A stretch of DNA of 64,000 nt from a virus, in IMG/VR virus record IMGVR_UViG_3300046674_000532; one strand, given 5' to 3'. The first letter of the stretch is position 1. Each line of letters starts with the position of its first letter. A model generated the notes under the pieces. It made no database searches and was not told where the DNA came from. It was given only the letters and a program-made list of their open reading frames with translations. Position numbers and translations under genes: made by a program. Positions 4,538 through 51,226 of this stretch are shown piece by piece.

Positions 4538-5547
4538 CCGGCGGGCACCGGGAAGGCGTCGTGGGTGCGCCCGTCGAGTTCGCGGCCGGCGTTCTTCTTG
4601 CCGACGCGGGCGAGTTCGATGCGGTGGCCGAGGTCATCGACCGGATCTCCAGCGAGGAGGGTGCCCTTGCTGGTGGCGCCGATGACGAGGTAGCCGGTGG
4701 GCGCGTACTCGCCCCACTGCTTGAAGAAGAACGGCACGTCTGCTTCGGCGCACTGGTCGCGCAGTGCCGTGGCCCACTGGGGTGCCATGGGGCGGGCGCT
4801 GCGGCCGGACTCGCCGCCGACGATGACCCAGTCGATGCCGTGGAACTTCTTGCAGCAGTCGCCCGCGTGGACGTAGGAGGTGTTCAGGCCGTGGCCTCGT
4901 TCGCTGCCCATGGTCCGGACGGCATGCTTGAGGTCGACGGGGCCGAGGAGCGGTTCACAGGACAGGAAGCGAACGGCGGCCGGGGTGTCCAGGAGTGCGG
5001 GGATGCGGAGGTCGGCTCGCTTCTGGTCCTCGACGCTGACGCCCAACCAGACGTTCCGGAGCGGCTTGGCGAAGTCACTCCACCACTGCGAGGTCTTCTG
5101 CTCCCGCTCGTACCGCGGCATCGGCGTCGCCTCGTCGTTGACGAGCACGGCCTGGGCCGCCTCGCATGCCAGGCGAAAGTCGCTGCTGTTGAGCAGGGCC
5201 CGCATGCGTCCGTGGCGCTTCGTCAGCACCTGGTACGTGTGCTGGGGGGTGAGCGCCATGACGGCGAAAACGCTGGCGATGTACTCGGTCGGAATGTCCT
5301 TGTGGAACAGGTCGGACATCGAGTTGACGAAGACGCGCTTCGGCTTCCGCCACCGCAGCGGAAGGGTCAGTCGTTCGGGGCGGAGGGTGACATCGAAGCC
5401 GGTCTCGAAGTGGTGGCCGGGGGTGCCGCGCCAGCGTTCGGCGAAGGTCTCGGCGTAGCAGTTGTCGCAGCCGGACGAGACTTTCTCGCAGCCGGTGACG
5501 ACGTTCCAGGTGGCGTCCGTCCATTCGATCTTGCTGGTGTCAGCCAT
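4534..5547 (-). CDS. Phage Gp37/Gp68 family protein (DUF5131)
   Basis: N-terminal signature KIEWTDATWNVVTGCEKVSSGCDNCYAE. Length 337 aa is typical of the family. Confidence 0.8.
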   Translation of the reverse strand: MADTSKIEWTDATWNVVTGCEKVSSGCDNCYAETFAERWRGTPGHHFETGFDVTLRPERLTLPLRWRKPKRVFVNSMSDLFHKDIPTEYIASVFAVMALTPQHTYQVLTKRHGRMRALLNSSDFRLACEAAQAVLVNDEATPMPRYEREQKTSQWWSDFAKPLRNVWLGVSVEDQKRADLRIPALLDTPAAVRFLSCEPLLGPVDLKHAVRTMGSERGHGLNTSYVHAGDCCKKFHGIDWVIVGGESGRSARPMAPQWATALRDQCAEADVPFFFKQWGEYAPTGYLVIGATSKGTLLAGDPVDDLGHRIELARVGKKNAGRELDGRTHDAFPVPAG

Positions 5548-5764
5548 GGGTCTTCTCCGGGGAGGGTTCAGGGAGTCCGAGGGTCTGGGCGAGGGAGCGG
5601 CGGGCGTTGTGGTCGTTGGCGGGGTTGTTGATCCAGCGGGATACGAGGGCGAGGCGTGCTCGGAGGATGGCGAGGTCGTTCTCGGCGCGGGCGAGCAGGT
5701 CGGGGTGCCTGGCCTGGAGTTGGCCAGCGAGGGTGGCGACGTAGGCCGGGTCTGCGGCGCTCAC
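5540..5764 (-). CDS. Hypothetical protein (74 aa)
   Basis: Track ORF. GTG start overlaps the upstream stop (GTGA). Helical-looking sequence. Confidence 0.5.
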   Translation of the reverse strand: MSAADPAYVATLAGQLQARHPDLLARAENDLAILRARLALVSRWINNPANDHNARRSLAQTLGLPEPSPEKTHG

Positions 5765-6348
5765 GGCTCCGGGTGCTCCTTCGCGGTCTCCTTGTCGGCG
5801 GTCCGGGCGGCGAGGCCATCGGCGATGGCGGCGAGGGGCAGGGGCTGGGTGGAGGTGGTGGTCTTCTTCGCGGCCTGGAGGGCTTCGGCGGCGGTCTGCT
5901 TGGGCGTGTAGTGGCGGGCGTGGCAGTGGGTGGCGCGGGCGGCGGCCATGCGGAGGTCGGCGGGGGTGTGGATGGGGTCGGCGTGGTGGGCGCCCTGGTT
6001 GCAGGGGGTGAAGGCGTGGAAGGGGGCGGCGGACTGGTCGTCGGGCGTGTAGGCGAGGACGGCGCCGGAGGGGAAGGCACGGGCTGCGGTGCCGTCGGGG
6101 CGCTGCTGCCAGTCGCGTACGAGCCCGTGGGGCAGGCCGTGAACTTTGGCGGCGTGGTAGGCGGCGAGTTGGAGTTCGGTGATGAACTCGGTGGTGCGGA
6201 CGGGGAGCGGGGGCGTCGGCTTGACGAGGGAGAGGGCGGCCGCGGTCTTGCGCGGGGCGCGGGTGCGCTTGGCGGTCGGTTTCTTGGCCTGGGTCTTCTT
6301 CGCTGCGGTCTTGGCGGGGGTGCTGCTGGTGCGTGCCCTGGTGGTCAT
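5761..6348 (-). CDS. Hypothetical protein with a Lys/Ala/Thr-rich basic N-terminus (195 aa)
   Basis: Track ORF. ATG at 6348 overlaps the upstream stop. The N-terminal 40 aa are histone-H1-like and basic. Confidence 0.55.
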   Translation of the reverse strand: MTTRARTSSTPAKTAAKKTQAKKPTAKRTRAPRKTAAALSLVKPTPPLPVRTTEFITELQLAAYHAAKVHGLPHGLVRDWQQRPDGTAARAFPSGAVLAYTPDDQSAAPFHAFTPCNQGAHHADPIHTPADLRMAAARATHCHARHYTPKQTAAEALQAAKKTTTSTQPLPLAAIADGLAARTADKETAKEHPEP

Positions 6349-6473
6349 GCCTGTTCTCCGTCCTGCGGATGCTGGTGCTGTTCGGTGGTGCTCCGGTGGT
6401 TGTGCTGGTGGTGGGTGATGAGGAGTGCGAAGGCGGTGAGGACGGCGGCGGCGATGCCGTCCGGCCAGGTCAC
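6345..6473 (-). CDS. Possible small membrane peptide (42 aa)
   Basis: GTG at 6473 overlaps the protease stop (GTGA). VTWPDGIAAAVLTAFALLITHHQHNH... has one hydrophobic helix followed by a His/Gln-rich tail. Below the track size cutoff. Confidence 0.3.
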   Translation of the reverse strand: MTWPDGIAAAVLTAFALLITHHQHNHRSTTEQHQHPQDGEQA

Positions 6474-7165
6474 TGCGTGGATTCCTTGGCCGGCGTGAGG
6501 GTGAGCGGCCGCAGTTTGGTGCGGTTGGCGACGAGGTTCTTGAACCCGGTGGTGTCCTGCGGGGTGTAGTCGTCGGCGTAGGTGGCGGTGGTGTAGCCGC
6601 CCCAGGTGTCGCCGCGCATGAGGGGGGAGGGGTTGGTGGTCCAGGTGTTGGGGTGGGTGAGGCCGAAGGAGTGGCCGAGTTCGTGGGAGATGACCTTGCG
6701 GCGGTAGATCTCGTGCTGGCCGTTGACGATCTGGGTGGTCCAGTTGCCGAGGGCGATGCTGGCGCGGGAGCCGTCGGCGGCGCCGGTGGCGGTGTGGCAC
6801 TGGGATGCGTTGGACCTGGTCACGGTGGACGTCAGCCGCATGATGATGGTGTGGCTGGTCGGGCAGGCCGTGGCGCCCTTGGAGATGGTGGTGGTGACGG
6901 TGACCGTCAGGCCGGTGGCTGCCTTCACGTGGGCGGCGGTCAGCTTCGCGTACGCGGTGAGCTTCGTCCGGGATGTGCTGTCGTAGAAGACGATCGTCCA
7001 GGGCTTGCTGTCGAGGTAGCGGACGCCGTTGCCGTCGCCGATGTTCCAGCCGGTTCCCTCGTAGACCTGGTAGAGGCCCGCGCCGTGGGCACGCCCGGGG
7101 GCGGCAACCACGGCGGAGGCGGCCAGGGTGAGGGCGAACGCCGCGCTGGCTATTCGGGTTCTCAT
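6470..7165 (-). CDS. Secreted metzincin-type zinc metalloprotease (snapalysin/M7-like)
   Basis: Signal peptide MRTRIASAAFALTLAASAVVAAPGRAHG. Zinc motif HELGHSFGLTH (HExxHxxGxxH) is followed by a Met-containing turn (PLMRGD). Confidence 0.75.
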   Translation of the reverse strand: MRTRIASAAFALTLAASAVVAAPGRAHGAGLYQVYEGTGWNIGDGNGVRYLDSKPWTIVFYDSTSRTKLTAYAKLTAAHVKAATGLTVTVTTTISKGATACPTSHTIIMRLTSTVTRSNASQCHTATGAADGSRASIALGNWTTQIVNGQHEIYRRKVISHELGHSFGLTHPNTWTTNPSPLMRGDTWGGYTTATYADDYTPQDTTGFKNLVANRTKLRPLTLTPAKESTQ

Positions 7166-7458
7166 GCGGGTCGTCCGTTCTTCCGGGCCCACCACTTCTG
7201 GGCCTTGTCGGTCTGGGTGGTCTTGTCGGCGAGGTGGGACTGCATGACCTCCAGGGCGGCGCGTCCGTAGCCGGCGGCGTACATCCGTTCCGGGAGGGTG
7301 GAGGTGGGGGTGATGAAGTCGAGGGCGAGGGTGGCGTTGACTCGGACGGTGTCGGGCTGGTGGTGCTGGGCGTCGTCGTAGGCGTCGGCGCGGCCGCGGG
7401 CGAAGTCGGGGTTGGTGGAGAACGGGGGCGGTCCGGGGGCGATGTCGGTGATCGTCAT
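7162..7458 (-). CDS. Hypothetical protein (98 aa)
   Basis: Track ORF with an ATG start. Its stop overlaps the protease start. Confidence 0.55.
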   Translation of the reverse strand: MTITDIAPGPPPFSTNPDFARGRADAYDDAQHHQPDTVRVNATLALDFITPTSTLPERMYAAGYGRAALEVMQSHLADKTTQTDKAQKWWARKNGRPA

Positions 7459-10004: not shown

Positions 10005-10666
10005 GGGGCGTCTCCGCTCCTCCGGCAGATATCGGGAAGGGTCTCGTGCAGCACGGCCTTGGGCCGCGCCCCGTCCCGCGTCACGGCTGCCAGTCCGAAC
10101 CGCGGGAAGCCCACTGTGGCACCACTACCGGCGTGGCGGGTAGGACAGATGCAGATTTCACCGATCATTGCGGCGCGACGTGTACAGATCCGGCCTGATC
10201 ACTCACGGGCCGCCACCGTTCCGGCCATTCCGGCGAGTTGACGTGTAAGGCCCCGCCAGGGGGTGGGGTGACGTGTTTTGCCGACAACGACTCCCGCAGG
10301 CCGGCGGGGCCTCGAGACCTCACGGGCATGCCCGCCAGATGACGGTGATTGTAGTCGCGCTATGTGCACGAAGGGGAGTGGCTTGCCCCGGCGGAAATCC
10401 CGCCTGGGGCATGACGGTACAAGGTGGGGCTGGTGCCGGGCTGGGGTGGCTGGCCGCCCTGACCGAGGTGAGGCACTGGAGGGCTGCGATCCACACAGGC
10501 CCTGCCCGGCCGGGCGGCCGGCCCTCCCAACGCGTGGGGGGTCGGCGCACCCTAGCCAACCTGCAGTGATTGCCTGAGGCAAGAGATTGGTAAGAGGCTC
10601 ACACGATCGACGGACGAAAAACCCCGACAACACTCGCAAACACGACCGAATTTTGTCGGTGTACAC

Positions 10667-10706
10667 CGCTGGCCCCGCTCCGGATGTAACCGGAACGGGG
10701 CCAGCG
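10667..10706 (-). terminator. Long hairpin immediately downstream of parB
   Basis: CGCTGGCCCCGCTCCGG-atgtaa-CCGGAACGGGGCCAGCG, beginning about 19 nt after the parB stop at 10725. Confidence 0.6.
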
Positions 10707-10724
10707 GTCTGTCTTCCCGGCGGG

Positions 10725-11828
10725 CTATACCGAGGGAACCTCCAGTCCAGCGCTGTCCGCGTACTCGTTCATCACACGCAGCGCCTTCACAAACGCACCC
10801 GTCGGCATCTTCCGGATGAGGTGCTGTGCAACGAAGTTCCCGTCGTCGTAGGGCAGGGTCCGCGGCGCAGGGTCCCCGCCGTCCTCGGCCTGCTGGACGG
10901 TCCGCGGTTCAGGGATCGGCTGCTCCGCCAGCACCACCGCGGGCGCATGGAGGTCCGGTGCGGTCTCCGGGACCGGAGCAGGGCCCGGCATCGGATCGGC
11001 ACCTGCTGGCTTGGACTTGGAGACGTCCGGAATTATCACGCCGTGATATTCGGCGGGCCCGGCCGAGCGTTCCGGCGCCGGGTATGGCGCGGGTTGCGGC
11101 GAAGCCGACCGGGCGGCCGCCTGGCTTTGAGCGGCTTCGGCGCGCGCGTCGGCCTTCTCAACCTGCTCCTGCGGGGTCAGCTTCCCGAGGTTGCGGACGT
11201 GCTCCACCCTGCGTGCACCGGTGACGAGGTCCTTCTGCAGCTCGGGGGTGAGCTTCAGCAGGGACAGCTTGGTGGAGAGCGTGGCCTGCGGGATCCCGAG
11301 CCGTTTCGCGGCCTTGAGCTGGGACCCGTAGTGGTCCACCAACTGCTTGAGCGCGTGGGCCTCCTCGAGGTCCGTCATGTCGTCGCGGTGGTAATTCGCG
11401 ATGAACGCGGCCTCGAGGAGGGTCTCGTCGGTGGCCAGCCGCGAGTTGTCGACCCTGACCGGGATGGTGGCCAGTCCGACGCGGCGGGAGGCCTCGAGGC
11501 GTCGGTGGCCGTCGATGACGACGTACTGGGCTCCGTCGTCGATGTCGTCGGCGCGGGCGGCCCGGTCACGGAGATAGGCCTCTGTCGTTCCGACGACGAT
11601 GGGCAGGATGATGCCGACCTGGCGGACGGACTCCACGGTCTCGTCGAGGTTGCGGAGGTGGTTGCGCGGGTTGTCGGGGTTGTCGCTGATCAGCGTGACG
11701 GGCAGTTCGGTGATGGCCGCGGTCGCTGCCGCGTCCCCTCCTATGGCGCTGTTGATGGCGTCGCGCCGTGGGCTGCGCCGGGCCGCGGCGAAGGCGGGCG
11801 CCGGGCCGAGGGTGTCGGCCTTGCTCAT
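10725..11828 (-). CDS. parB: ParB/Spo0J-family partition protein
   Basis: ParB N-terminal box ...YVVIDGHRRLEASRRVGLATIPVRV..., followed by an HTH (AAKRLGIPQATLSTKLSLLKL). Its start overlaps the parA stop. Confidence 0.85.
   Translation of the reverse strand: MSKADTLGPAPAFAAARRSPRRDAINSAIGGDAAATAAITELPVTLISDNPDNPRNHLRNLDETVESVRQVGIILPIVVGTTEAYLRDRAARADDIDDGAQYVVIDGHRRLEASRRVGLATIPVRVDNSRLATDETLLEAAFIANYHRDDMTDLEEAHALKQLVDHYGSQLKAAKRLGIPQATLSTKLSLLKLTPELQKDLVTGARRVEHVRNLGKLTPQEQVEKADARAEAAQSQAAARSASPQPAPYPAPERSAGPAEYHGVIIPDVSKSKPAGADPMPGPAPVPETAPDLHAPAVVLAEQPIPEPRTVQQAEDGGDPAPRTLPYDDGNFVAQHLIRKMPTGAFVKALRVMNEYADSAGLEVPSV
11032..11051. promoter_or_regulatory. parS-like palindrome AATTATCACGCCGTGATATT (copy inside parB)
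   Basis: Same ATTATCACG-N-CGTGATA(A/T)T motif as the two copies upstream of parA. GC-clamped flanks (CCGG...GGCGG). Confidence 0.55.
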
Positions 11829-12988
11829 CGGGTGGCCCCCTTCGCGACCTGCCGCATGGCCTCCGCCTGGTCGGACAGGGGTGCGTACGACAGCAGCGGC
11901 ATCCGCTTGCGGACCGCTTCCCGCTGTTCCTTCAGATCACCGATGACGGCCAGGACTCTCGGGTCACCGATGGCCTTCCAGCTATCCAGGGAGGAGGTGG
12001 CGACGTAACCGCGGCGCGAGTCGTACAAATTGACGACCAGGCCGAGGTAGTCGACGTCCAGGCTGAGGTCTTCGCACAGGGCTTCGATCTGCTGGTCGAG
12101 CATGCTGTACGCGGTGGCGGAGGAGTCCTCGGCGAGGACGGGAATGATGACGCCGGACTTGCCCTTGGCCTCGTTGCGGCGGCGGCGCGCGTAGTAGAGG
12201 GCGGCGTCCATGGCGATGCCGAGGCTGGGCGGGCAGTCCACGACGATGACGTCGTAGTCGGCCTCGAGGGGACGAAGTGCCATCTCCAGGGCGACTTCCT
12301 TCTGGAAGCCTCGCTTGTTCGCGGACAGGACGGCGATCCTCGAGTCGAGGAGGAATCCGTCGAAGCAGGCGGGCAGTACGTGCAGTCGCTTCTCGAACCG
12401 CGGATCGTCTATGACCACGACCAGGTCGCGGAGGTCTCCCTTGTCCTCGCCGCACATGTGGGAGACGAGGCTGTCGTGGTCGGGTGCGATCTGCAGGACA
12501 CCGAGTTGCTCGCTGAGGTGGCCTTGCGGGTCGTAGTCGACGAGCAGGACGCGCTTGCCCTGCTCGGCGTACGCCTGGGCGACGCCGGCGGAGATGGCGG
12601 TCTTGCCGACGCCGCCCTTCTGGTTGCAGACGACCTTGCGTTCGGCTTCTTCGTCCTGGGCGCCGTGCTGCGGGGAAGGGTTGGCGTCCAGCCACATCCG
12701 GACCGACTGCGCGAGGCCCTGGGTGTAGGAGACGGAGCGTTCGGTGCAGGCGTCCTTGAACGCGTCGTACTGGCCGGACGGGAGCCATGTGGAGAACGAG
12801 CGGGCGCCGGCCGTGTCGATGTCCGGGCTGATGCCGGGTTCGGCGCGCCATTGGGCGATGCCCGCGGTGACGGCGTCCTGGATGTCCAGGCCGAGCTCGG
12901 CGGCGCGGACCTTGAGTGCTTGTTGGAGCGCCGAGGGCAGCTTCGACGCTACCTTTTCCCGGTCTCCTTGGAGATATGGAGAGGCCAT
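11825..12988 (-). CDS. parA: ParA partition ATPase with a roughly 110-aa N-terminal DNA-binding-like extension
   Basis: Deviant Walker A NQKGGVGKTA, followed by VLLVDYDPQGH. The long N-terminal extension is as in type Ia ParA and has two RHH-like segments. Confidence 0.9.
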   Translation of the reverse strand: MASPYLQGDREKVASKLPSALQQALKVRAAELGLDIQDAVTAGIAQWRAEPGISPDIDTAGARSFSTWLPSGQYDAFKDACTERSVSYTQGLAQSVRMWLDANPSPQHGAQDEEAERKVVCNQKGGVGKTAISAGVAQAYAEQGKRVLLVDYDPQGHLSEQLGVLQIAPDHDSLVSHMCGEDKGDLRDLVVVIDDPRFEKRLHVLPACFDGFLLDSRIAVLSANKRGFQKEVALEMALRPLEADYDVIVVDCPPSLGIAMDAALYYARRRRNEAKGKSGVIIPVLAEDSSATAYSMLDQQIEALCEDLSLDVDYLGLVVNLYDSRRGYVATSSLDSWKAIGDPRVLAVIGDLKEQREAVRKRMPLLSYAPLSDQAEAMRQVAKGATR

Positions 12989-13074
12989 GGCGTCACCTTA
13001 CTGACTCTCCTGTCGCTCCTGTCACCCGGTTCGCCGTTCCTGACACGGTTTCATCCTTCCGGTGAGGTACCGGG

Positions 13075-13093
13075 ATTATCACGGCGTGATAAT
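13075..13093. promoter_or_regulatory. parS-like palindrome ATTATCACGgCGTGATAAT (copy A upstream of parA)
   Basis: Perfect 9-bp arms around a central G, 87 nt upstream of the parA ATG. Confidence 0.6.
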
Positions 13094-13132
13094 TCGCCGG
13101 GGTCCAAGACGATCCGGCGCCGGGAAGCCGTG

Positions 13133-13151
13133 ATTATCACGCCGTGATATT
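13133..13151. promoter_or_regulatory. parS-like palindrome ATTATCACGcCGTGATATT (copy B upstream of parA)
   Basis: One arm mismatch. Overlaps the stop codon of the small ORF 13137..13268. Confidence 0.55.
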
Positions 13152-13268
13152 TGCCGGGTCCTCGAGGACGTCGTCCTCGTCGCCCTGGTCGTACGGTCCG
13201 TCGACGTACACCGGCTCCCGGAACAGGTCCTCGTACGCCGGCTTCCGCGGTGTGGCGGTCTGTGTCAT
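13137..13268 (-). CDS. Small acidic hypothetical protein (43 aa)
   Basis: ATG at 13268 overlaps the upstream stop (ATGA). GC3-rich codons. Below the track size cutoff in its trimmed form. Confidence 0.45.
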   Translation of the reverse strand: MTQTATPRKPAYEDLFREPVYVDGPYDQGDEDDVLEDPANITA

Positions 13269-13507
13269 CCCAGGCTCCCGGCGGCCGCCCCGAGGTGGGC
13301 GTGCATGTGGTGGTCGAGCATCTTGCGTTCCACGGCGGCCAGGTAGCGGTCGCGGGCCTCCTGCGGCGGCAGGTCGGCGTGCTCGAGATGGAAGTCGAGG
13401 GTGACGCCCCAGCAGGCCTGGCCCATGGTGTGGAAGTCGCCGTGGAGGAGGCACATGGTGGGGGCCGCCTGGCCGGTGGTCTGTGCGGGTGCTGCGGGTG
13501 TGGTCAA
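13265..13507 (-). CDS. Hypothetical His-rich small protein (80 aa)
   Basis: TTG at 13507 has GGAGA 7 nt upstream, right after the previous stop. An ATG at 13456 is the alternative start. Confidence 0.45.
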   Translation of the reverse strand: MTTPAAPAQTTGQAAPTMCLLHGDFHTMGQACWGVTLDFHLEHADLPPQEARDRYLAAVERKMLDHHMHAHLGAAAGSLG

Positions 13508-13521
13508 GGGTGGTTCTCCGT

Positions 13522-14568
13522 TCAGGCGGACGTGGGTGCGCTGTAGCCGTAGCGGGCCCGGTCGCGTACGCACCGTGCGGCGATTTCCTCGGCTGCAACC
13601 TGCGGCCAGTTCGGGGTGTCGGTGGTGAGGTGCTGGACGGGCTGACTGCCGCCGAACCAGGAGTCGCCGGCCCGGTAGGGGATGCCGGGCTTGCAGTCCC
13701 AGTCCAGGGTCCAGTGCTCGCGGCGCCGGCCGCGTTGGCGTCCGATGGACCAGCACTCGAGGCGGACGGTCACCTCGTAGGCCTCGCCGTCCGGCATCCG
13801 AACGGTGGCAGGCGCCTTCGCCGTGACGGACACCTGCCGGTTGGTGACCTTGCCGAGCAGGTAGTGGCGGGGGTCGATGGGGATGCTGCCGCGCCACCAC
13901 CACGGGTCGTCCTTGGAGGAGCTGTCGCGGGGCGCCCACAGCTTCCAGTTGAGGCGGCCGCGATGGAGGTCGACGCCGGTGACCCTGGACTCGGTGGACA
14001 GGTCCCGGTTGCCGTTGAAGCGGCGTTGGATGAACCGGCCGTGGTCTTCGGTGTGGACGTAGATGGCGCCGAGCGGGCCAAGGGAGATGCTGGCGGCTAG
14101 GCACTGCTCGCTGCTACCGGAACCGACCTTGAGTTGAGCGCTGACGAAGTTGGACCGTCCGATGATGACCTGGGCGCCGACCGCGCTTTCCGGGTTCATC
14201 GACCAGTCACCGGGCAAGCGGATTCCCGCGTCGTGGCCGAGGCGGATGAGTTGCTTGCGCACGGTCGGGGACATCGGCTGTGTGGGATTAAACGGGCCGG
14301 TGTAGCGCTGTCCCAGATGCCACTGGTCAGGGTCCAGCCAGCCCTGGGGCTCGGGACGAATGCCACACTGTCCGCAGTTGATCCAGCGGGCCCGGCGTTC
14401 CTCTTCGGGACCGTACTTCGAGTCGTATCCGTCGACTACCGGCCGGTGACCGATCAGGCGGCACAGCAGGATGACGCGGGGCAGGCCGGAGAGGAAGAAG
14501 CCGCGGTTCATCAGGACCCAGCGGTCGGCGGAACGGTCCTTGCTGTAGTCGACGGTGAACCAGTGCAT
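13522..14568 (-). CDS. Hypothetical protein (348 aa), Trp-rich, no recognised domain
   Basis: Clean track ORF with an ATG start and an N-terminal hydrophobic segment (FFLSGLPRVILLCRLIG). Confidence 0.65.
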   Translation of the reverse strand: MHWFTVDYSKDRSADRWVLMNRGFFLSGLPRVILLCRLIGHRPVVDGYDSKYGPEEERRARWINCGQCGIRPEPQGWLDPDQWHLGQRYTGPFNPTQPMSPTVRKQLIRLGHDAGIRLPGDWSMNPESAVGAQVIIGRSNFVSAQLKVGSGSSEQCLAASISLGPLGAIYVHTEDHGRFIQRRFNGNRDLSTESRVTGVDLHRGRLNWKLWAPRDSSSKDDPWWWRGSIPIDPRHYLLGKVTNRQVSVTAKAPATVRMPDGEAYEVTVRLECWSIGRQRGRRREHWTLDWDCKPGIPYRAGDSWFGGSQPVQHLTTDTPNWPQVAAEEIAARCVRDRARYGYSAPTSA

Positions 14569-37877: not shown

Positions 37878-38975
37878 TCAGGAGTCCTCCGGCGATCCGT
37901 AGTGGAAGCTGTCGGCGCGCCGCAGCGTCAGGACGGCCTGGTCGGGGTTGTCGCCGGGCTGGTAGGAGTCGGCCGTGATGCGCGCCCATCCGGTGTACGA
38001 CGTCCACTCGTTGTGCACTGCTACCTGGACGTCGTCGCCGATCTGCCAGGACCCGAGGCGGGCGTTGGGGTGGTCGCGGACGGTGATCTGGTCGACCTGG
38101 CCCATGATCTGAAGCTTGCGGCGTTCGGCGGTCGCGCGGCGGCCGAGGACGTCGTTGCCGTTGACGGTGGGCAGGGCCAGCACGGTCTCCATGCGGAGGC
38201 GGCCGTCGCGGGCGGGGTCGACGGCGAAGCGGGTGGCGGTGCCTTCGCCGCTGCCGGTGGCGATGACGACGTTGGCGTAGTCGTCCCCGGACCGCTTGAC
38301 CGGCGGCGCGTTGATGATGTTCACGCCGGACCGGAAGCTGATGTCGGTGCGGCGGGCGCCCAGACGCGGGTAGCCGAGCGCGAGGCGCCGGCGGATGCTG
38401 CCGTTGGACTGGAAGGAGCAGAGGTTGGTGTACTGCGGGGCGCCGTCCTCGGACACCAGGTCGTCTACCAGCTCGCCCAGCACCGGGGTCTCGTACCAGT
38501 AGGAATGCCACGGCTCGGCCGGCGTCCCGGACTTCGCGCTGGACGTGGTGGAGTCGACGACGACGCCGAGGTTCCCGTCCGGCTGCTCCTGCGCGTACGC
38601 CCAGATGTCGCGGATGATGTCGCACGGGTCGGCGTACGTGTACGGACCGCGTCCGTTCAGTTCGCCGTGCTCGTCGTGCCGCTTGGTCAGGTACGACGAC
38701 CAGGACGCGGCCTCGAGCCGGTACTCACCGCCTTCGGCTTCCACGGACCAGACGAGGCCGCCCCAGCGCAGGAACCCGTCCGCTTCCGCGTAGATCAGGG
38801 CGACGGCCGGTTCGACCAGTGCAGCGTTCGCGGCGACCCAGTGCGGGGCGAGGGTGGCGGAGAAGCTGCCGGGGCCGTTGAGTTCGTTGCCGAACTCCAC
38901 CCCGGACAGCGGCAGTGCGGGGTGGAGGACGGCGCCAGTCAGCGCGTGCTGCGTGAAAAAGCGCCAGCGCCCCAT
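37878..38975 (-). CDS. Minor tail / baseplate-hub-like protein (365 aa)
   Basis: ATG at 38975 (MGRWRFFTQH...) overlaps the upstream stop. Position lies between Dit-like and fibre genes. Confidence 0.7.
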   Translation of the reverse strand: MGRWRFFTQHALTGAVLHPALPLSGVEFGNELNGPGSFSATLAPHWVAANAALVEPAVALIYAEADGFLRWGGLVWSVEAEGGEYRLEAASWSSYLTKRHDEHGELNGRGPYTYADPCDIIRDIWAYAQEQPDGNLGVVVDSTTSSAKSGTPAEPWHSYWYETPVLGELVDDLVSEDGAPQYTNLCSFQSNGSIRRRLALGYPRLGARRTDISFRSGVNIINAPPVKRSGDDYANVVIATGSGEGTATRFAVDPARDGRLRMETVLALPTVNGNDVLGRRATAERRKLQIMGQVDQITVRDHPNARLGSWQIGDDVQVAVHNEWTSYTGWARITADSYQPGDNPDQAVLTLRRADSFHYGSPEDS

Positions 38976-39928
38976 CAGATGGCGCCCTCGGTGAACTCCA
39001 CGTCGATGATGAAGCTGGTGGCGCCGTCCACGCCGATCTTCCCCGCGTTGGAGGACCGGGTCCGCATGCGGGCCTTGAAGGCCTGGTTGGTGCCGCGCAT
39101 CGCGGCGCCCGCAGTGGTGGTGAGGCTGATCGTCTCGGCCATCACCAGGGAGGGGACGCGGCGGGCGGCGGAGCCCTGGTTGTCGTCGATGGAGACCCAC
39201 TGGGCGGCCTCTTCGGTGCCCAGCATAAAACGGAAGCCGCCGAACACGTTGCCGTCGACCAGGCGTATGCCGCCGGCGGAGAAAACGACCTTTGCGGAGG
39301 CGGCCCAGGCGGGGATCGCGATGGTCGCCATGGTCAGGTTGGGGTGGGTCTTCCACGTCTCCGAGGTGCCGGAGATCTCCACCAGCGGGTCGGACGCGTA
39401 GTACGGGTACAGGATGCGTTCGCGGCGCGGGTTGGCGACCTTCCGCAGGTCCACGATCATCGCGGCGGTGATGGTCGCGGTCGAGGCCGGGATGTCGATG
39501 CGGGCCAGCGGGATCGCCGAGTACCCGGAGGGCACCGTCGTCGCGGACGAGCCGACGTTGGTGACGACCTGCCAGTAGACGATCGGGTCCTCGGCCGGGT
39601 CGCGGGTGCCCTCGTAATCGGGGTCTTCGACGCGCAGGATCAGCATGTCGGAGCGCGGTGACCCGCCGGTGGCGGAGATCGACACGGTGTCGGAGCCGAT
39701 GTTGTAGGCCGAGTAGTAGCCCTGGAACGTGTTCGCCTTCCCGGCGATGACGGCCGATCCGTCACTGATCTGGACGCCGGCGCCGGGCGTGGACAGGGCG
39801 GACACCTTCAGGTCCAGGCCGGTGGTGACGCCCTGGTTGTCCCGCGCCAGGTCTTTAATCATCATGCGGAACTGCTGGGCGGTGTGCTCGGCCCCGGTGG
39901 TTGCGATCGGGGTGCCGTTGAGCGCCAT
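38975..39928 (-). CDS. Minor tail protein (317 aa)
   Basis: Clean track ORF, beta-rich, within the tail module. Confidence 0.65.
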   Translation of the reverse strand: MALNGTPIATTGAEHTAQQFRMMIKDLARDNQGVTTGLDLKVSALSTPGAGVQISDGSAVIAGKANTFQGYYSAYNIGSDTVSISATGGSPRSDMLILRVEDPDYEGTRDPAEDPIVYWQVVTNVGSSATTVPSGYSAIPLARIDIPASTATITAAMIVDLRKVANPRRERILYPYYASDPLVEISGTSETWKTHPNLTMATIAIPAWAASAKVVFSAGGIRLVDGNVFGGFRFMLGTEEAAQWVSIDDNQGSAARRVPSLVMAETISLTTTAGAAMRGTNQAFKARMRTRSSNAGKIGVDGATSFIIDVEFTEGAI

Positions 39929-39938
39929 GACGGGCCTC

Positions 39939-40835
39939 CTACAGGGCCTTGTAGGCGGGCCACCAGGTGACGGCCAGCGTGGACGTGAGCGTGTTGTCGG
40001 TGGCGTTCCACCGAATCTCGTTGAGGCCCGGGGTGAGGACGAACTGGTCGATGCGGGAGACGGCGGTGAGGGGGGCGCCGCCGCCGTTCTCGCGCAGCAC
40101 GGTGCGCCAGCCGGGCCGGGTGTCGATCTGCACCCACTCCCCGGCGGCCAGCGTCGTCTGCACGGTCAGCGTCCGGCCGGAGCCGACGTGGGTGATGGAG
40201 GGGTTGGCGCACGGCCCGTTGACCCGCAGAACGGGTGCGGTGGCCTTGGTGCCGTCGACCTGGATGTAGCCGGGGCGGGCGATTGCGGATGCGGCTCCGG
40301 CGATCGTGAACGGGAACTGCAGGGGGAAGGTCATGCCGCCCTCGGTGAGGCTGCCGAGCGGCATGGACGTCGTCTCCGCCTGGTCGGCGTAGTAGAGGTG
40401 GTCCTGCGCCTGGAACTCGATGTCGAGCGGCGCGTAGCCGAAGATGACCTGTTCCAGGTTGGGTTCGAACTTTCGCAGGCGGCCGCGGACGACGCGGGTG
40501 GTACGGCCGGGGAACTTCAGCCGCAGGTCCATGGTCGTGCCGGCCTGCCCGCGGACGGCGTCGGTGTCGGCGAGGTCCTGGAGGTCGGCGGCGATGTCGA
40601 GGACGCCGGGCACGTCCTCGACGACCTTGACGGCGGCGTCGATGCGGATGAGGCGGCCGGCGTAGTAGTCGGTGCCCAGCCAGGTGCCGTCCTCCCCGGG
40701 CGGGTCCACGTCGGCGGTGCGCAGCGGGGGCTGGCCGAGGCCTTCGACGGTTTTGATGGGGATGCTGGTGCCGCGTCCGATGAGGACGCCGCCGAGTTCG
40801 TGCTGGAAGTCGCTCAGCTCGATGGGTGTGCTCAT
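39939..40835 (-). CDS. Distal tail protein (Dit)-like (298 aa)
   Basis: ATG at 40835 overlaps the tape-measure stop (ATGA). The size and the position directly after the tape-measure gene are typical for Dit. Confidence 0.65.
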   Translation of the reverse strand: MSTPIELSDFQHELGGVLIGRGTSIPIKTVEGLGQPPLRTADVDPPGEDGTWLGTDYYAGRLIRIDAAVKVVEDVPGVLDIAADLQDLADTDAVRGQAGTTMDLRLKFPGRTTRVVRGRLRKFEPNLEQVIFGYAPLDIEFQAQDHLYYADQAETTSMPLGSLTEGGMTFPLQFPFTIAGAASAIARPGYIQVDGTKATAPVLRVNGPCANPSITHVGSGRTLTVQTTLAAGEWVQIDTRPGWRTVLRENGGGAPLTAVSRIDQFVLTPGLNEIRWNATDNTLTSTLAVTWWPAYKAL

Positions 40836-43800
40836 CCGCGTGCCCCTACTCCGCCGCGGGCCAGGCGCCGCAGCTGGTAGCCCTGACGGCTGTCGATGTC
40901 GCGGGCCAGGTCGCGGTCGGACCGGCGGTCGCCGATGTGGTAGTGGTTCTCGCCGATCAGGGGGGCCTGCTGACGGATGATGATGATCTTTTCTTTGGTG
41001 GCGTCCCGCAGGCCCACGCCGAACCGTCCGGCGACGTCGGCCAGGACCGGCATCGCGGAGCTGCGCTTGTTCGCGCCGAGCGGGATGTACGCCTCGCCGC
41101 CGGTGGACGGCTCGGCGAAGGTGACGGCGCCGCCGCTGGTGGAGTAGATTCCGGAGCGGATCCCGCCGTCGGCGTACGCGAGGCCCTTGTTGGCCTTGCC
41201 CAGGTCGGACAGGAAGCGGGTGGCGCGGGTGCCGAGGCTCTTGCTGATCTGGCTCTTGGCCTTGTTGGCGACCGTGATGATCTCGTCTTCGCCCAGTGCG
41301 GTGGTCGCGGCGACGTCGTGCAGGCCGGTCTTGCTCGTCTTGATCGCGGCGATGATGGAGACCAGTTCGGACACCTCGTCGGCCGTCAGGGCCTTGTTCG
41401 CGGTCTTCGCTGCGTCGTTGGCCTTGGACGCCTTGCCCTTGTCCTTGACCGCGGCCGCGGCGAGGTCCTGCGCGGCCTGGTCGTTCTGGGCGGCCAACTG
41501 GGCGGCGAGGTCCCCGAAGCCTTCGGCGGCCAGCTTGGCCAGGTTGTCGCTGAACGTCTTGTTCAGCACGTTGGCCTTGCCCAACTGGCGGGTGTAGTCC
41601 TCGAGCGTGGCCTTGGCCGTCTTCTGCAGGTCCCGGAGCGCCTTGGACATGTCGTTGATGTACTTGGTGGAGCCGGTGGCCATTTTGTGGGCGAGTTTCA
41701 TGCCGTCCTCGCCCATCGCGGCGAGGGCGTCGGCGACGTCCCCGCCGGCCCGGCGGGCGACGGCCTCGAGGTCCTTGTTCCAGGCGGTGGTGGCCTTCGC
41801 GGCGGACTTCAGCTTCTTCTCCACCGCGCCGATGTCGAAGTACTCGACCTCTTTGGTCTTCCACTTGCCCTTGACCTTGACCTTGACCTTCTTGGTCTTG
41901 TGGCCTGCCTGCCCGGCGTCGGAGGCGGAGTAGAGGGACCCGCTGGTGGGGTCGTAGCGCCAGTCGGTGACGTTGCCGTCGGCGTTCCAGTTGATGCCGC
42001 CCGGGTTGCCGCCCAGACGGCGGACGATCTCTTCGGTGATGGCGCGGGAGCGGGGCCGCTTGGAGGCGGCGAACGGAACGTAGCCCTCGCCCTGCGTCTC
42101 GGGCTCACCCCACACCCGCCACGATCCGCCGGGGGCGATCTGCGCGACGTGGTTCTCGGCGCCGCCAGCGAAGCGCTGTACGCCGCCGCGCTGGATGCCG
42201 CCGTTGGCGTAGTGGTCGACGATGCCGCCGTTGGAGTATCCGGCAAGGTTCTTGTTGGTTCGCGCGACGGTCGCTTCGACGTTGATGGTGTGCCGGACGG
42301 TGGTGAGCGTGACGGTTTTGCTGCGGATCCTGTCGATCGCGGCCTGGATGGCGCGGGCGGTCGCGCTGGCCCGGTCGATGACGCCTACGGGGACGTTCTT
42401 GCCCTTGACGCTGGACAGTTTCGCGATGAGCAGGTCGAGGTCGGCGCGAGCTCCCTGCGTCGGTGCGGTGATCTTGTATTCGCGGGTGCCGGGGATCAGC
42501 TTGATTTTGTAGCCGAGGTCCTCTAGTTCCCTCTTCGCGTCCTCGCCCAGAGCGTCAATCTTGATGGTCTTCTTGGTGGGCTGCGCTTTGAACTGGGCCT
42601 GCACCGCCATCAGTTCGGCGAGGGTGGAGTCGACGCCGTGGGTGGACAGCAGGATGGACACCTGTCCGGGGATCAGCCCCATGGAGTCGGCGACCCTCCC
42701 GGCCTGCGTCGCGGTCAGCCCGTACCCGCCCATCAGGTCGATGGCGGCCTTGCGGGACTTCTCCATCTCCGCGCGCGCGGCCGCCATCGACTCGGGCAGT
42801 CCCTTGCCCTGCGAGTCGGCAAAGTCGTAGGCGGCCACCGCCGCGGAGGCACTTCCGTCGGCGACGGTGTTGAGGGTGTTGAAGAGGTCCTGGCCGTTCT
42901 TGGTGGTGGTGTCGAGCTGCCCGTTGGTCTTCACCAGGGCTTTGCCGTAGCCGGCCGTGTGGTCGATGCCGTTCTTCATCGCCTCGTTGGCGTTGGAGAT
43001 GGCCTCGTTCACCCGGGCCTGCGCGGCCTGCAGGGAGACGCTGCCGCCGGACAGCAGGTCCAGGGCTTCGCGCAGGGCGCGGGTACGGGTGTCGGCGTCG
43101 CCGGTCCTGTCGGCCAGCGCGCCGACGGCGGTCTTGAGCCGGTCGTAGGCGGTGACGCCGTTGCTGGCCCCGTTGACGCCTTCGTTGTAGTCGCGGGCGT
43201 CTGCGGCGGCTTTCTTGAAGTCACCGGACAGGCCGGACAGCCCTTGGCGCAGGTCGTCTGCTGCCTGGCCCTGTTTGTTGAGGGCATCGCCGCCGACACC
43301 GGACTCGGGGTCCAGAACCCAGTGGTGGTTCGCTGCGGCGACATCCTCGAGGTGTTTTTGCAGCTTGCCCAGGCTGGTGCCCTGGTTGGTGTAGGCGTCG
43401 ACCAGTTCGGACATCGGGACTTTCGCGGTCCGCGCGAGGTCGACGAGGCGCTGCTGTCCGTCCAGCGTTGTTTTGATCTTCTGCTGCATCAGGTTCTCGG
43501 TGGCGATGGAGCGCACCGATTCGTTCACGACGCCGTTGGAGTCGCGTAGTGCCTGGGACAGGCTGCTGATCTGCTGCTGGTGCTCGGCGGCTGCCTGGGC
43601 GGCCTGCTGCTGCTTGGTGGCGAGGAAGCCGAGTCCGATGGTGGCGGCGGTGATGGCCAGGCCCCACGGTCCGCCGAGGGCGCCCATGAGGCCGCTGCCG
43701 AGTCCGCGGGCGGCGGTCCCGGCGGCTGCGCCGATCCCGCGCAGGGTGCCGGTGAAGCCGGTTCCGGCGGCTGCGGCGGTACGGAACGAGGCCCCCATCC

Positions 43801-45925
43801 GGCCGATGATCGGGACCCGGGCCTGGAGGACGGAGAGCGCTGCCCCGTACCGGGTCAGGGACACGCCGGCCGCGGCGGCCAGCGACCGCTGCACGGCCAT
43901 CTGCCCGCTCAACGATCGGAAGGCACCGGTGACGCGTCCGGACACGGTGCCGGCGAGCGCTGCCATACGCGGCTGGATGCGGGAGGTCAGCATCGCGGCG
44001 AGGACGAACTGCTGGATCGGGCCGGGCAGCGCGCCGAACGCGGAGACCAGCGTGCCGACGAGGTGGCCGATCGGGCCCAGTACGACGGAGACCGCTGATA
44101 CGGCGGCCATGACGAGGTCCAGGGCTCCCACGACGATGTCGAGGGTGGAGGCCACGGTGCTGCCCTCGCCGGTGAGGTCGCCGAAGGCGGACACGACGGG
44201 CTGGACGCCGTCGGCGAGGTTGCCGAGGACGTCCATGACCATCTTCCCGGCGTTGATGATCAGGTGGAAGAAGGCGGCGATGCCTTCGCCCGCGAGGTCC
44301 TTGAACGGCTCGGCCAGGCCTTCCGCGGAGTCCTTGATCCCGTCGAACTGGGCGCGGGCGGCCGCGAGAAGGTCGGGCCCGAACACGGAGCCCAGGTCGT
44401 TCATGTGCTTGAAAAACTGTTCGATCTTCGGGGTGGCGTCGGACAGGCCGGCAGTGATGCCGCGGGTGAGGAACTCCAGGCCGGGCGCCATGCCCTGGTA
44501 GATCGTCAGGCCGGTCTGCTTGGCCTGGGTCTTGAGCTGGAGCATGGCGCCGGCGAGGCCCTTGCCCTTGGCGGCGGCGATCTCGGAGGCGGCGCCGGTG
44601 TCGGACACCGCGGCCATCAGGTTGTCGAAGCTGTCGACGCCCTGGTGGGCGAGGGCGATGGCGCCGGACATGGCCGGCTTGCCCATGGACTTCTTGACGG
44701 CGGCCGCGAAGTCCTTCTGGCTCATCTTGTGCTGGGCGTGGGACAGGCCGTCGATGACGTAGCGCAGGCCTTTGAACTGCCCGGACGCAGACCACGCTTC
44801 GATGCCCATGGCCTTGAGGCCTTCGATCATCTGCGGGGTGGGGGCGGCCAGGTTGGCCATCATGCCGCGCAGTGTCGTACCGGCGGTCTGGCCGAGGATG
44901 CCGGCCTTGCCGAGCATGCCGACCGCGGACGCGGTCTCCTGCATGGTGACGCCGAGCCCGTGCGCGACCGGGCCCGCGTACTTCATGGCGTAGTAAATGT
45001 CGATAATGTCGCCGGATGCGGCATTTGCCGTAGCGGCGAGGGTGTCGGCGGCCTTGCCCGCCTGGTCGGCGCCCATGCCGAACTGGTCCATCATGTCGCC
45101 GAGATACTTCGCGCTGTCGGCGGCGTCTACCTGCGCGGCGGAGGCGAGGATCAGGCTGGCGCGGGTGGAGGAGATGGCCTGGTCGGTACGGAACCCGGCC
45201 TTGGCGAGTTCCACCATCGCCTCGGCGGCGTCCGCGGCGGTGGCGCCGGGGATGCTGAGGTCGTTGCCGAGCTGGTTGGCGGTCGCCCCTGCGCGCTGCA
45301 TCTGCATGGCGGTCGCGCCGGTCGTCGCCCCGAACGCGTTCATCGACTGCTGGAGTTCGCCGCCCATCTTCAGCAGCTCGGCGCCGCCGATGACGAACGC
45401 CCCGCCGGTCAGCAGGTTGGCCAGGGACATGAGCTGGCGGCGGGCGTGCCCGGACTCGTCACCGATGCGGCGCAGGCCACGGACGCTGCCGCCGCCGACC
45501 CGGGCCAGGCGTGAGTCGGCGCGTCGGGCCGCGTCGGCCAGGCGCAGCAGGTCCCGGACCGCACCGTCGATCTGCCCGGACATGCGGGCGAGTTGCCGGG
45601 CGGTGGTGCGGGAGTGATCGCCCAGGGTGTTGACGTGCCGCTGGGCGCGCTGCGCGGCATCCCCGTAGCGGCCGAGGTGGCGGGCCGCGGCCTGGGCGCC
45701 CTCTCCCAGCCGGGTCAGGTTGCGGCCTGCCGTGCGGGCTTCGCGACCCAGGGTGCGCAGGTGCCGGGTCGCGGTGTCGGCGGCCTGCCCGAGTTCCTTG
45801 ACCTCGGTCTTCGCGGTACGTGCGGCATTCCCGAGGCTGCGGGCGTGCTTCGCCGACGACTTCAGCGACTGGGCGAGATCATTACCGTGCCCGCGGATGT
45901 CCACGGACAAGTTCCAGTTGGCCAC
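40832..45925 (-). CDS. Tape measure protein (1697 aa)
   Basis: Largest ORF; GTG start with GAGGGAGGGG upstream. The N-terminus is helical and repetitive, with Gly/Ala-rich TM-like segments. It follows the frameshifted chaperone genes. Confidence 0.9.
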   Translation of the reverse strand: MANWNLSVDIRGHGNDLAQSLKSSAKHARSLGNAARTAKTEVKELGQAADTATRHLRTLGREARTAGRNLTRLGEGAQAAARHLGRYGDAAQRAQRHVNTLGDHSRTTARQLARMSGQIDGAVRDLLRLADAARRADSRLARVGGGSVRGLRRIGDESGHARRQLMSLANLLTGGAFVIGGAELLKMGGELQQSMNAFGATTGATAMQMQRAGATANQLGNDLSIPGATAADAAEAMVELAKAGFRTDQAISSTRASLILASAAQVDAADSAKYLGDMMDQFGMGADQAGKAADTLAATANAASGDIIDIYYAMKYAGPVAHGLGVTMQETASAVGMLGKAGILGQTAGTTLRGMMANLAAPTPQMIEGLKAMGIEAWSASGQFKGLRYVIDGLSHAQHKMSQKDFAAAVKKSMGKPAMSGAIALAHQGVDSFDNLMAAVSDTGAASEIAAAKGKGLAGAMLQLKTQAKQTGLTIYQGMAPGLEFLTRGITAGLSDATPKIEQFFKHMNDLGSVFGPDLLAAARAQFDGIKDSAEGLAEPFKDLAGEGIAAFFHLIINAGKMVMDVLGNLADGVQPVVSAFGDLTGEGSTVASTLDIVVGALDLVMAAVSAVSVVLGPIGHLVGTLVSAFGALPGPIQQFVLAAMLTSRIQPRMAALAGTVSGRVTGAFRSLSGQMAVQRSLAAAAGVSLTRYGAALSVLQARVPIIGRMGASFRTAAAAGTGFTGTLRGIGAAAGTAARGLGSGLMGALGGPWGLAITAATIGLGFLATKQQQAAQAAAEHQQQISSLSQALRDSNGVVNESVRSIATENLMQQKIKTTLDGQQRLVDLARTAKVPMSELVDAYTNQGTSLGKLQKHLEDVAAANHHWVLDPESGVGGDALNKQGQAADDLRQGLSGLSGDFKKAAADARDYNEGVNGASNGVTAYDRLKTAVGALADRTGDADTRTRALREALDLLSGGSVSLQAAQARVNEAISNANEAMKNGIDHTAGYGKALVKTNGQLDTTTKNGQDLFNTLNTVADGSASAAVAAYDFADSQGKGLPESMAAARAEMEKSRKAAIDLMGGYGLTATQAGRVADSMGLIPGQVSILLSTHGVDSTLAELMAVQAQFKAQPTKKTIKIDALGEDAKRELEDLGYKIKLIPGTREYKITAPTQGARADLDLLIAKLSSVKGKNVPVGVIDRASATARAIQAAIDRIRSKTVTLTTVRHTINVEATVARTNKNLAGYSNGGIVDHYANGGIQRGGVQRFAGGAENHVAQIAPGGSWRVWGEPETQGEGYVPFAASKRPRSRAITEEIVRRLGGNPGGINWNADGNVTDWRYDPTSGSLYSASDAGQAGHKTKKVKVKVKGKWKTKEVEYFDIGAVEKKLKSAAKATTAWNKDLEAVARRAGGDVADALAAMGEDGMKLAHKMATGSTKYINDMSKALRDLQKTAKATLEDYTRQLGKANVLNKTFSDNLAKLAAEGFGDLAAQLAAQNDQAAQDLAAAAVKDKGKASKANDAAKTANKALTADEVSELVSIIAAIKTSKTGLHDVAATTALGEDEIITVANKAKSQISKSLGTRATRFLSDLGKANKGLAYADGGIRSGIYSTSGGAVTFAEPSTGGEAYIPLGANKRSSAMPVLADVAGRFGVGLRDATKEKIIIIRQQAPLIGENHYHIGDRRSDRDLARDIDSRQGYQLRRLARGGVGARG

Positions 45926-45967
45926 CGGTACGCCCCTCCCTCGCTGCTCGACTCGTGCGGTGTGCGG

Positions 45968-46899
45968 TTACCGGGCGCCGAGTTCGGCGGCCAGCTGCTG
46001 CGCTGCGTGGATGTGCGCGGGCAGCAGCAGGACCTTCAGGCCGCCCCCGGCCTGCCCGTCGGGGATCTCCTTCTGCCTCATGGCGATCTCCTCGCAGCCG
46101 AAGCAGTTGTGCGTGACGGCGATGTAGGAGTCCACGTATTCGCCGTTCTCGTCGACCCACTCCGATTCGCGGGTGCCGCACTGCGGGCACATCCCGCGCA
46201 GGTAGTCGGCGTAGGCGAGGGCCTTGTCCCGGTCGCCGGCCGACCAGGTGCCGTCGCCGAGGCCCCGGAACTGCGAGTACGGGATGCGGTACTCGCGGCA
46301 CAGGGCCATCTCGGCGCGGAACCGTAGGTCATCGGTCAGCCTTTTCCCAGGTCGGCCCGGGTGGTGTTCTGCACCCCGTAGGCGGCGTTGAACATCGCGT
46401 TGGCCTCGGCAAGCGACCAGGACTCGAGGAGCTCGCGCGCTTCGGTCTCGGTCATACCGTCGACGGACGCGGCCGCGATCAGCGCGGCGGGGTATCCCTC
46501 GCCCCACTCCTTGCCGTCTTCGGATTCCGCCTCGGACGCCGGATGCGCCTTGAAGACGGCTTCGTAGGCCGGGCGGGGCAGGGCGCGGAAGCGGATGGCG
46601 ATGGCGACCTGGTCGTAGGCGGCGTTCGCCTCGTCCCGCTCCCGGGTGGCGGTGGCGAGGTCGGCGGCCGCCTCAGCGTCCTTGGGGTGGGCCTTGGCGT
46701 AGTTCTCGGCCAGGTCGAACGCGCGGGCGGCCCGGTTGTGGCGGTCGCGGACGGCCTGGTCGTCGCAGATGACGAAGGTGGTCTCGGCGAGCGACCGGTT
46801 GCGGAGCCGGTTCATCTTGGCGGACCAGTGCGCGTCGGCGGCCACAGCCTGCGCGGGCGGCTCGGGGGTGGCGGTCTGCCGGGTTCGGGTGGTGGTCAT
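45968..46899 (-). CDS. Tail assembly chaperone -1 frameshift fusion product (gpGT analogue)
   Basis: A -1 slip on G_GGA_AAA (46342..46348) continues as GKRLTDDLRFRAEMALCREY..., exactly the frame of track ORF 45968..46507. Confidence 0.75.
46336..46899 (-). CDS. Tail assembly chaperone (gpG analogue, 187 aa)
   Basis: Lies between the major tail and tape-measure genes. It ends ...ADLGKG* with the slippery heptamer GGGAAAA at its 3' end. Confidence 0.8.
   Translation of the reverse strand: MTTTRTRQTATPEPPAQAVAADAHWSAKMNRLRNRSLAETTFVICDDQAVRDRHNRAARAFDLAENYAKAHPKDAEAAADLATATRERDEANAAYDQVAIAIRFRALPRPAYEAVFKAHPASEAESEDGKEWGEGYPAALIAAASVDGMTETEARELLESWSLAEANAMFNAAYGVQNTTRADLGKG
46342..46348 (-). 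other. Programmed -1 ribosomal frameshift slippery site GGGAAAA
   Basis: Canonical X_XXY_YYZ heptamer in the zero frame (CTG GGA AAA GGC TGA), 4 nt before the chaperone stop. Confidence 0.75.
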
Positions 46900-46920
46900 G
46901 GCGGGTGGGTCCTCCGGTTC

Positions 46921-46961
46921 GGGAAGGGGACCCGGCCGGGCGCCGATGGGCGCCCCTTCCC
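46921..46961 (-). terminator. Bulged GC hairpin between the major tail and chaperone genes (attenuator-like)
   Basis: Outer stem GGGAAGGGG / CCCCTTCCC and inner stem GGGCGCC-gatg-GGCGCCC. It sits within the late operon. Confidence 0.45.
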
Positions 46962-47014
46962 GAACGCGTCGGGGCCCGGCCGGGCGTAGAGGGGGTGTTG
47001 CGGTCCGGCTGGGG

Positions 47015-47818: not shown

Positions 47819-47957
47819 TCGTGGGCCCCTTGGTCCCGGGGCCTTCGAGGTCTGTGGGACCCGGCCCCTTACACGGTGTGTATGGGTGGCGGCCACCTGC
47901 CTGGTGGCGTCCGCGTGGGGTCCCGCCGCGGTGCGGTCATACAGCCCTGACCTTCGG

Positions 47958-50829: not shown

Positions 50830-50859
50830 CCGGGGTGGTGGTGGGAAGGGGGTGTGCGG

Positions 50860-50907: not shown

Positions 50908-50911
50908 GCCG

Positions 50912-51223: not shown

Positions 51224-51226
51224 GGC

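Follow-up and report, generated by a model that had tools for sequence, protein, structure and literature searches.

The 64,000-nucleotide stretch of viral DNA analyzed here (IMG/VR record IMGVR_UViG_3300046674_000532), called the window throughout, carries three copies of a palindrome in and beside a parAB gene pair. We conclude with high confidence that these palindromes are the parS sites of a partition system of the SCP1 parABS2 type, that is, a type I system with a helix-turn-helix (HTH) ParB, on a pZL12-like Streptomyces phage-plasmid. The window adds a further member to a known kind of system, because the same 19-bp sequence has already been shown experimentally to be parS2 of the plasmid SCP1. 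A first-pass annotation, made from the sequence alone, had offered two roles for the palindromes: a noncanonical parS bound by the adjacent ParB or an autoregulatory operator bound by an N-terminal extension of ParA. The first of these is now supported by identity with SCP1 parS2, by the homology of ParA and ParB, by conservation across 48 loci, and by covariation with the HTH of ParB.

Three palindromes at parAB

Motif copies were counted by direct pattern scans of the sequence. At up to three mismatches, ATTATCACGSCGTGATAWT occurs three times in the 64-kb window, at 11032-11050, 13075-13093, and 13133-13151, and nowhere else in it. None of 100 dinucleotide-preserving shuffles of the window yielded any palindrome match. 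The partition genes, in which the parA stop overlaps the parB start, and the three sites are as follows:

10725-11828, minus strand: parB, 367 aa, an HTH-type ParB with Pfam ParB_N (N-terminal CTPase-fold domain, GHRRLEA box) and HTH_ParB
11825-12988, minus strand: parA, 387 aa, a deviant Walker A ATPase with Pfam AAA_31/CbiA from about residue 119
11032-11050: putative parS copy in the parB coding region, ATTATCACGCCGTGATATT, read on the minus strand as E-Y-H-G-V-I-I in the ParB linker
13075-13093: putative parS copy 5' of parA, ATTATCACGGCGTGATAAT, with perfect 9-bp arms and a central G, equal to the published SCP1 parS2
13133-13151: second putative parS copy 5' of parA, ATTATCACGCCGTGATATT, the same 19-mer as at 11032-11050

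The 15-bp core, TATCACGSCGTGATA, is perfect at all three sites, and the single mismatch of the copies at 11032-11050 and 13133-13151 falls outside it. The site at 13075-13093 lies 87-105 nt before the parA ATG, with its core beginning at −103, and the distal site lies 145-163 nt before the ATG, with its core beginning at −161. Reading of the sequence confirmed the first-pass description of one copy in parB and two copies 87-163 nt before parA, with perfect arms at 13075-13093 and one mismatch at 13133-13151. The intragenic palindrome was placed correctly but drawn to 11051; it is 19 bp long and ends at 11050. The GC-clamp flanks that had been pointed out do exist, but they are unremarkable in DNA of 69% G+C, and relatives repeat only the core-adjacent GAT...ATC. 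The motif had also been said to differ from chromosomal parS, and indeed the canonical parS, GTTTCACGTGAAAC (16-bp palindrome tGTTTCACGTGAAACa), has no match in the window at up to two mismatches. SCP1 parS1, attacggcgtaat, is likewise absent from the window.

Match to SCP1 parABS2

SCP1 parS2 is attatcacggcgtgataat (Table S3 of McPhillips et al., Nucleic Acids Res 2026, PMC13245405), and the window sequence at 13075-13093 is identical to it letter for letter. At the other two window sites, the core is perfect with C as its central base, and one mismatch to parS2 falls in the flank. On SCP1, chromatin immunoprecipitation sequencing of ParB2-3xFLAG gave peaks at three sites of identical sequence surrounding parAB2 and showed spreading over 15-20 kb. 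In biolayer interferometry (BLI), ParB2 bound parS2 with a dissociation constant (KD) of 377 ± 55 nM and left parS1, chromosomal parS, and scrambled DNA unbound, and the 15-bp core tatcacggcgtgata was sufficient for ParB2. The protein binds and hydrolyzes cytidine triphosphate (CTP), and its sliding is CTP dependent. The parB2 gene has a parS2 within its own coding sequence; for complementation, the authors eliminated this site by synonymous changes (PMC13245405).

The published 50-bp parS2 oligonucleotide has a 100% match in Streptomyces anthocyanicus plasmid NZ_CP109276.1, a 387-kb linear SCP1-like plasmid with SCP1 marker proteins, which served as a proxy for the SCP1 record in the protein comparisons. 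The window ParA is 82% identical to its ParA across all 387 residues. For ParB, identity is 63% overall and ∼80% over residues 1-235, which span the CTPase and HTH domains and include the GHRRLEA box; this box contains the arginine equivalent to R112 of ParB2. The SCP1-like plasmid has four cores, one in parB and three 3.5-7.5 kb upstream of parA.

The window thus shares with SCP1 parABS2, and with the nearly identical parABS of pSV1 (both of Streptomyces coelicolor/S. violaceoruber), the 19-bp parS and its 15-bp core, three sites clustered at parAB with one in parB, a ParA of equal length (387 aa), and an HTH ParB with the GHRRLEA box. The systems differ in replicon, the window belonging to a phage-plasmid of ∼90 kb and SCP1 being a 356-kb linear conjugative plasmid. 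They also differ in the placement of the nongenic sites, which are promoter proximal in the window (−103 and −161) and lie 3.5-7.5 kb upstream in the SCP1-like plasmid, in the linker and C-terminal third of ParB, and in the one noncore mismatch of the first and third window sites. From site identity, protein homology, and the covariation described below, we infer that the window ParB is the binder of the palindromes and acts at its three sites as SCP1 ParB2 does.

Conservation of the core across Streptomyces replicons

A megablast search with the parAB region found Streptomyces plasmids as the nearest relatives, at ∼80-84% identity. The core was present in all of the first four relatives, each having one copy in the 3' portion of parB and its remaining copies variably placed. 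A ParB-seeded scan with one genome per species then gave 47 Streptomyces loci, and 48 parAB loci, drawn from the scan, the plasmid loci, and the window, were scored. The 15-bp core is essentially invariant over these loci. It occurs within parB in 47 of the 48, ∼740-800 nt into the gene. Upstream of parA, a copy is present within 400 nt in 34 of 48 loci, the 14 without one including the SCP1-like plasmid. In ∼32 of 48 loci, the proximal copy holds a constant position of about −94 to −107, and many relatives have a second upstream copy at about −145 to −165.

The intragenic copy sits in an otherwise unconserved Pro/Ala-rich linker of ParB and is read in two frames, as (D/E)YHGVII in frame 0 and as (L/V)SRRDN in frame 1. 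The TAT, ATA, and ATT codons used by frame 0 are rare in Streptomyces. Because the internal copy is kept in two frames and with rare codons, selection appears to target the DNA sequence and not the encoded peptide.

Rather than recurring at similar density elsewhere, the motif is confined to parAB both in the window and in the complete 87.8-kb relative NZ_CP109172.1, which has exactly three cores. A collection-wide scan with a 17-mer returned mainly Streptomyces contigs; those that were checked also encode ParA or ParB homologs and include arrays of 6-14 copies. Among the arrays, locus L086 has 14 cores in 2 kb (4666-6594) directly 3' of the region coding for the ParB HTH, L070 has six cores (6944-7187), four of them repeating every 36 bp (12 codons) in the 3' region of parB, and L056 has six cores in 400 bp upstream of parA (569-948). 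Two sequences labeled as chromosomes, from Streptomyces sp. BBFR25 (L005) and BBFR51 (L010), carry parABS2-type modules with two to four cores ∼0.15-0.35 Mb from the high-coordinate end, which may reflect exchange between plasmid and chromosome arms or integrated elements. The 17-mer also matched outside Streptomyces; the matches in Bacteroidales were set aside as an unrelated element, as they are members of dense ATTATC-N7-GATAAT arrays with variable centers; contigs of Bacteroidales metagenome-assembled genomes with such arrays include L055, L068, L069, L074, L093, L108, L121, L122, and L131.

A variant centromere covaries with the ParB HTH

Two related loci, L041 (at 10751) and L046 (at 8564 and 10682), carry TTTCACGSCGTGAAA, in which both arms are altered symmetrically from TATCAC to TTTCAC. 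The peptide encoded in these loci shifts nonconservatively to DFHGVK. Their ParB proteins differ from the other 48 aligned sequences by G178S, I179M, and Q181A in the HTH, plus G215S; residues G178, I179, and Q181 are invariant in those 48. The N-terminal strands of ParA in the same two loci, which are the predicted DNA contacts of that protein, are unchanged. The joint change of site and ParB HTH looks like a natural specificity switch, read from two related loci and possibly one evolutionary event.

The ParA N-terminal domain and the parA leader

The first-pass annotation had noted a long N-terminal extension of ParA, and ∼115 aa do precede the ATPase domain of the window ParA. The extension is kept in all 48 related ParAs. 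An AlphaFold2 model of it from a 25-sequence alignment consists of two successive strand-helix-helix units, with a core predicted local distance difference test score of 85-90. The closest solved structures are the ∼110-residue chains E, F, and G of the F-plasmid relaxosome, which we take to be TraY, followed by AvtR, DndE, and single-chain Arc; presumably, these neighbors are mostly tandem or single-chain ribbon-helix-helix (RHH) proteins. Pfam gave weak, subthreshold RHH matches on the extension and no match to an HTH family. The extension had been called type Ia-like, but the predicted fold is a tandem RHH and not a winged HTH. On this model, the extension very probably binds DNA. Nothing relevant on a ParA fused to an N-terminal RHH was found in the literature searched, which is no proof that such a fusion is undescribed. 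The domain and the conserved elements of the parA leader are as follows:

12683-12961, minus strand: predicted single-chain tandem RHH domain, ParA residues 10-102 (AlphaFold2)
12991-13006, minus strand: box AGTCAGTAAGGTGACG, candidate parA promoter/operator, a GTCA-N6-TGAC palindrome abutting the parA ATG
13037-13057, minus strand: conserved leader block GGATGAAACCGTGTCAGGAAC, downstream of the −103 parS and ahead of the start of parA

The start-codon box has only one match in the window. It holds a −10-like hexamer, TAAGGT (family form, TAWGST), 6 nt ahead of the ATG of parA, an arrangement suggestive of leaderless parA transcription. The family form of the box, AGTCAGTAWGSTGACG, was found in every one of 46 related loci, with or without a proximal parS. 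Loci that lack a proximal parS also keep the leader block, whose family consensus is GGGTGAAAC-N3-GTCAGAAC. In 33 aligned parA upstream regions, ∼75 nt of conserved leader lie downstream of the −103 parS and contain GGGTGAAAC, GTCAGAAC, a GTGNCA/TTGTCA −35-like element, and the box AGTCAGTAWGSTGACG at the ATG. Judged by these patterns of conservation, the start-codon box would be a better operator candidate for the invariant RHH domain than the parS palindromes. We tentatively propose, as a possibility with the odds somewhat against it, that the single-chain tandem RHH of ParA (TraY- or AvtR-like), and not ParB or a type Ia HTH, binds AGTCAGTAWGSTGACG at the −10-like hexamer and start codon of the apparently leaderless parA. 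If true, ParA proteins of this kind would form a third autoregulatory class, of RHH type, and might act together with ParB clamps that load at the fixed −103 parS.

The distal parS at 13133-13151 overlaps the 3' end of an open reading frame on the same strand as parA, 13137-13598 (minus strand), and small hypothetical genes are annotated at this position in relatives. Given this overlap, parAB may also be transcribed by read-through from upstream genes.

Proposed mechanism and alternative roles for the palindromes

By analogy with SCP1 ParB2, ParB dimers would recognize the 15-bp core via the HTH, and parS-bound ParB would then bind CTP, close to a clamp, and slide, giving a partition complex over several kilobases. 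As established for type I systems, this complex would stimulate nucleoid-bound ParA-ATP, and episome copies would be moved and spaced along hyphae and into spores. Because the parB linker, which is poorly constrained, contains one of the sites, the centromere would travel with the gene. The −103 and −161 sites would put ParB loading beside the parAB promoter, probably with feedback on expression, and the promoter-proximal copies could thereby contribute to regulation through ParB.

Several points weigh against this assignment. In SCP1, parABS2 is dispensable for plasmid maintenance under laboratory conditions (PMC13245405), and the functional importance of the class is for that reason not yet demonstrated. 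The protein comparator was an SCP1-like plasmid standing in for SCP1 itself, and the C-terminal third of the window ParB diverges from the SCP1-like ParB (overall identity, 63%). The covariation comes from only the two related loci. The regulatory step is pure inference, and a simple scan called no sigma-70-type promoter.

Instead of or besides being ParB sites, the palindromes might be autoregulatory operators for the ParA N-terminal domain, as in the type Ia systems of P1 and F, and we consider this improbable. The conserved extension of ∼115 aa is predicted with good confidence as a DNA-binding tandem RHH, two of the three palindromes lie in the 87-163 nt upstream of parA, and about two-thirds of relatives keep a copy at a fixed position near −100; all three points would suit an operator. 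However, binding of ParB2 to the exact sequence is published (PMC13245405), and 14 of 48 loci, the SCP1-like plasmid among them, lack a copy in the 400 nt before parA. Conservation is strongest for the copy within parB, loci with the altered motif have unchanged RHH strands, and the other invariant palindrome, at the start of parA in all 46 loci, fits the invariant ParA domain better. The operator role suggested in the first-pass annotation was set aside on these grounds.

Operators of a phage regulator, for example, a cI/Cro-like repressor, would be in keeping with the full siphovirus structural module of the window and with the core TATCACG-S-CGTGATA, which we take to resemble the lambda operator consensus TATCACCGCCGGTGATA. 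This identity is nevertheless very unlikely: the motif accompanies parAB on nonphage plasmids, such as the SCP1-like linear plasmid, the phage-plasmid has no other copies and none in its lysogeny and early regions, and ParB2 binding has been shown experimentally (PMC13245405). We regard the likeness to the lambda operator, and that to the omega heptad, as coincidence, since the motif follows parAB on nonphage plasmids. Chance AT-rich palindromes or hairpin/terminator elements without a protein partner have only the palindromic form in their favor, and their probability is negligible; they are already refuted by conservation, the core being invariant across 48 loci while 0 of 100 shuffles gave a match. 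A hairpin or terminator was also rejected: the 1-nt center is too short to loop, a T-run is lacking, and a scan of 10500-13400 called no terminator-like sites. We therefore retain the assignment of the three palindromes as parS sites of the parABS2 type.

The host element is a phage-plasmid

Long open reading frames for PHROG scanning were picked with a crude gene caller based on G+C content at third codon positions. A complete siphovirus-type structural and packaging module occupies 38975-58050 on the minus strand and includes the following:

56428-58050, minus strand: terminase (large subunit)
54106-55995, minus strand: portal
52302-53039, minus strand: head decoration
51227-52288, minus strand: major head
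47015-47896, minus strand: major tail
40832-45925, minus strand: tape measure
38975-39928, minus strand: minor tail

The window is syntenic with Streptomyces “plasmids” of 88-92 kb that encode capsid, terminase, amidase, integrase, Bet, RusA, and WhiB, one of which, read completely, is circular. Virion structural and packaging genes and partition genes are thus found together on one episome-sized replicon. A search of the phage collection with the parAB region gave only a weak ParA match, in phage Gilgamesh, and no related phage record. Contigs encoding the window ParB were retrieved only as short metagenome contigs. Judged by gene content and synteny, the window is a pZL12/pSLE1-like phage-plasmid and not an ordinary plasmid. 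With the pZL12/pSLE1 plasmid-phages of Streptomyces it shares a size of ∼86-90 kb, 69% G+C, siphovirus structural genes, and parA plus parB, the likeness to pZL12 being one of description. ParA and ParB have been noted before in this plasmid-phage type. The match suggests that the partition module most likely maintains an episomal prophage. The ParB of pSLE1 was reported to be only 41% identical to that of pZL12, which suggests that partition modules have been swapped within this group of phage-plasmids.

Comparison with other partition systems

The window system has the architecture of chromosomal ParABS of Streptomyces and others (parS, GTTTCACGTGAAAC), with a Walker ParA and an HTH ParB with a CTPase fold. 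Its half-site, T-W-TCAC, resembles the chromosomal GTTTCAC, and the TTTCAC of L041 and L046 is closer still, but the window motif has three additional central base pairs (CAC-GSC-GTG versus CAC-GTG). Chromosomal ParA presumably lacks the N-terminal extension. Plasmid ParBs lack the LG-R/K-GL ParA-interaction motif. In BLI, ScParB did not bind parS2, nor did ParB2 bind ScparS (PMC13245405).

The 13-bp parS1 of SCP1 is, like the window motif, an AT-rich inverted repeat with a CGGCG center and a copy in its own parB, and it is bound by a plasmid ParB that is a CTPase. It differs in being shorter and without the TCAC/GTGA step, and its specificity is strictly separate. Type Ia systems (ParABS of P1 and SopABC of F) share with the window an extra N-terminal DNA-binding domain of ParA, which is a prediction for the window, and a low-copy-number episome, and P1 is also a prophage-plasmid. 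In P1 ParA and F SopA, however, this domain is a winged HTH, whereas in the window it is a predicted tandem RHH. The centromeres also differ, with a simple palindrome of 15-19 bp in the window, box A/box B with integration host factor in P1, and 43-bp repeats in F. The window ParB is nearer in sequence to the chromosomal type than to type Ia.

Implications for Streptomyces replicons

On the basis of these comparisons, a centromere validated only in SCP1 now extends to a family of some 50 or more Streptomyces replicons, phage-plasmids among them, and the biochemically defined 15-bp core is exactly what evolution keeps. The related loci offer natural experiments beyond the published work, namely, an intragenic parS read in two frames, arrays of up to 14 copies, and a symmetric variant that covaries with recognition-helix residues of ParB. 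These comparative results are useful extensions rather than surprises, and the tandem RHH domain of ParA with its candidate operator is the only part that might be new biology. The conserved core would be of use for centromere annotation and for predicting the incompatibility groups of Streptomyces plasmids and prophage-plasmids.

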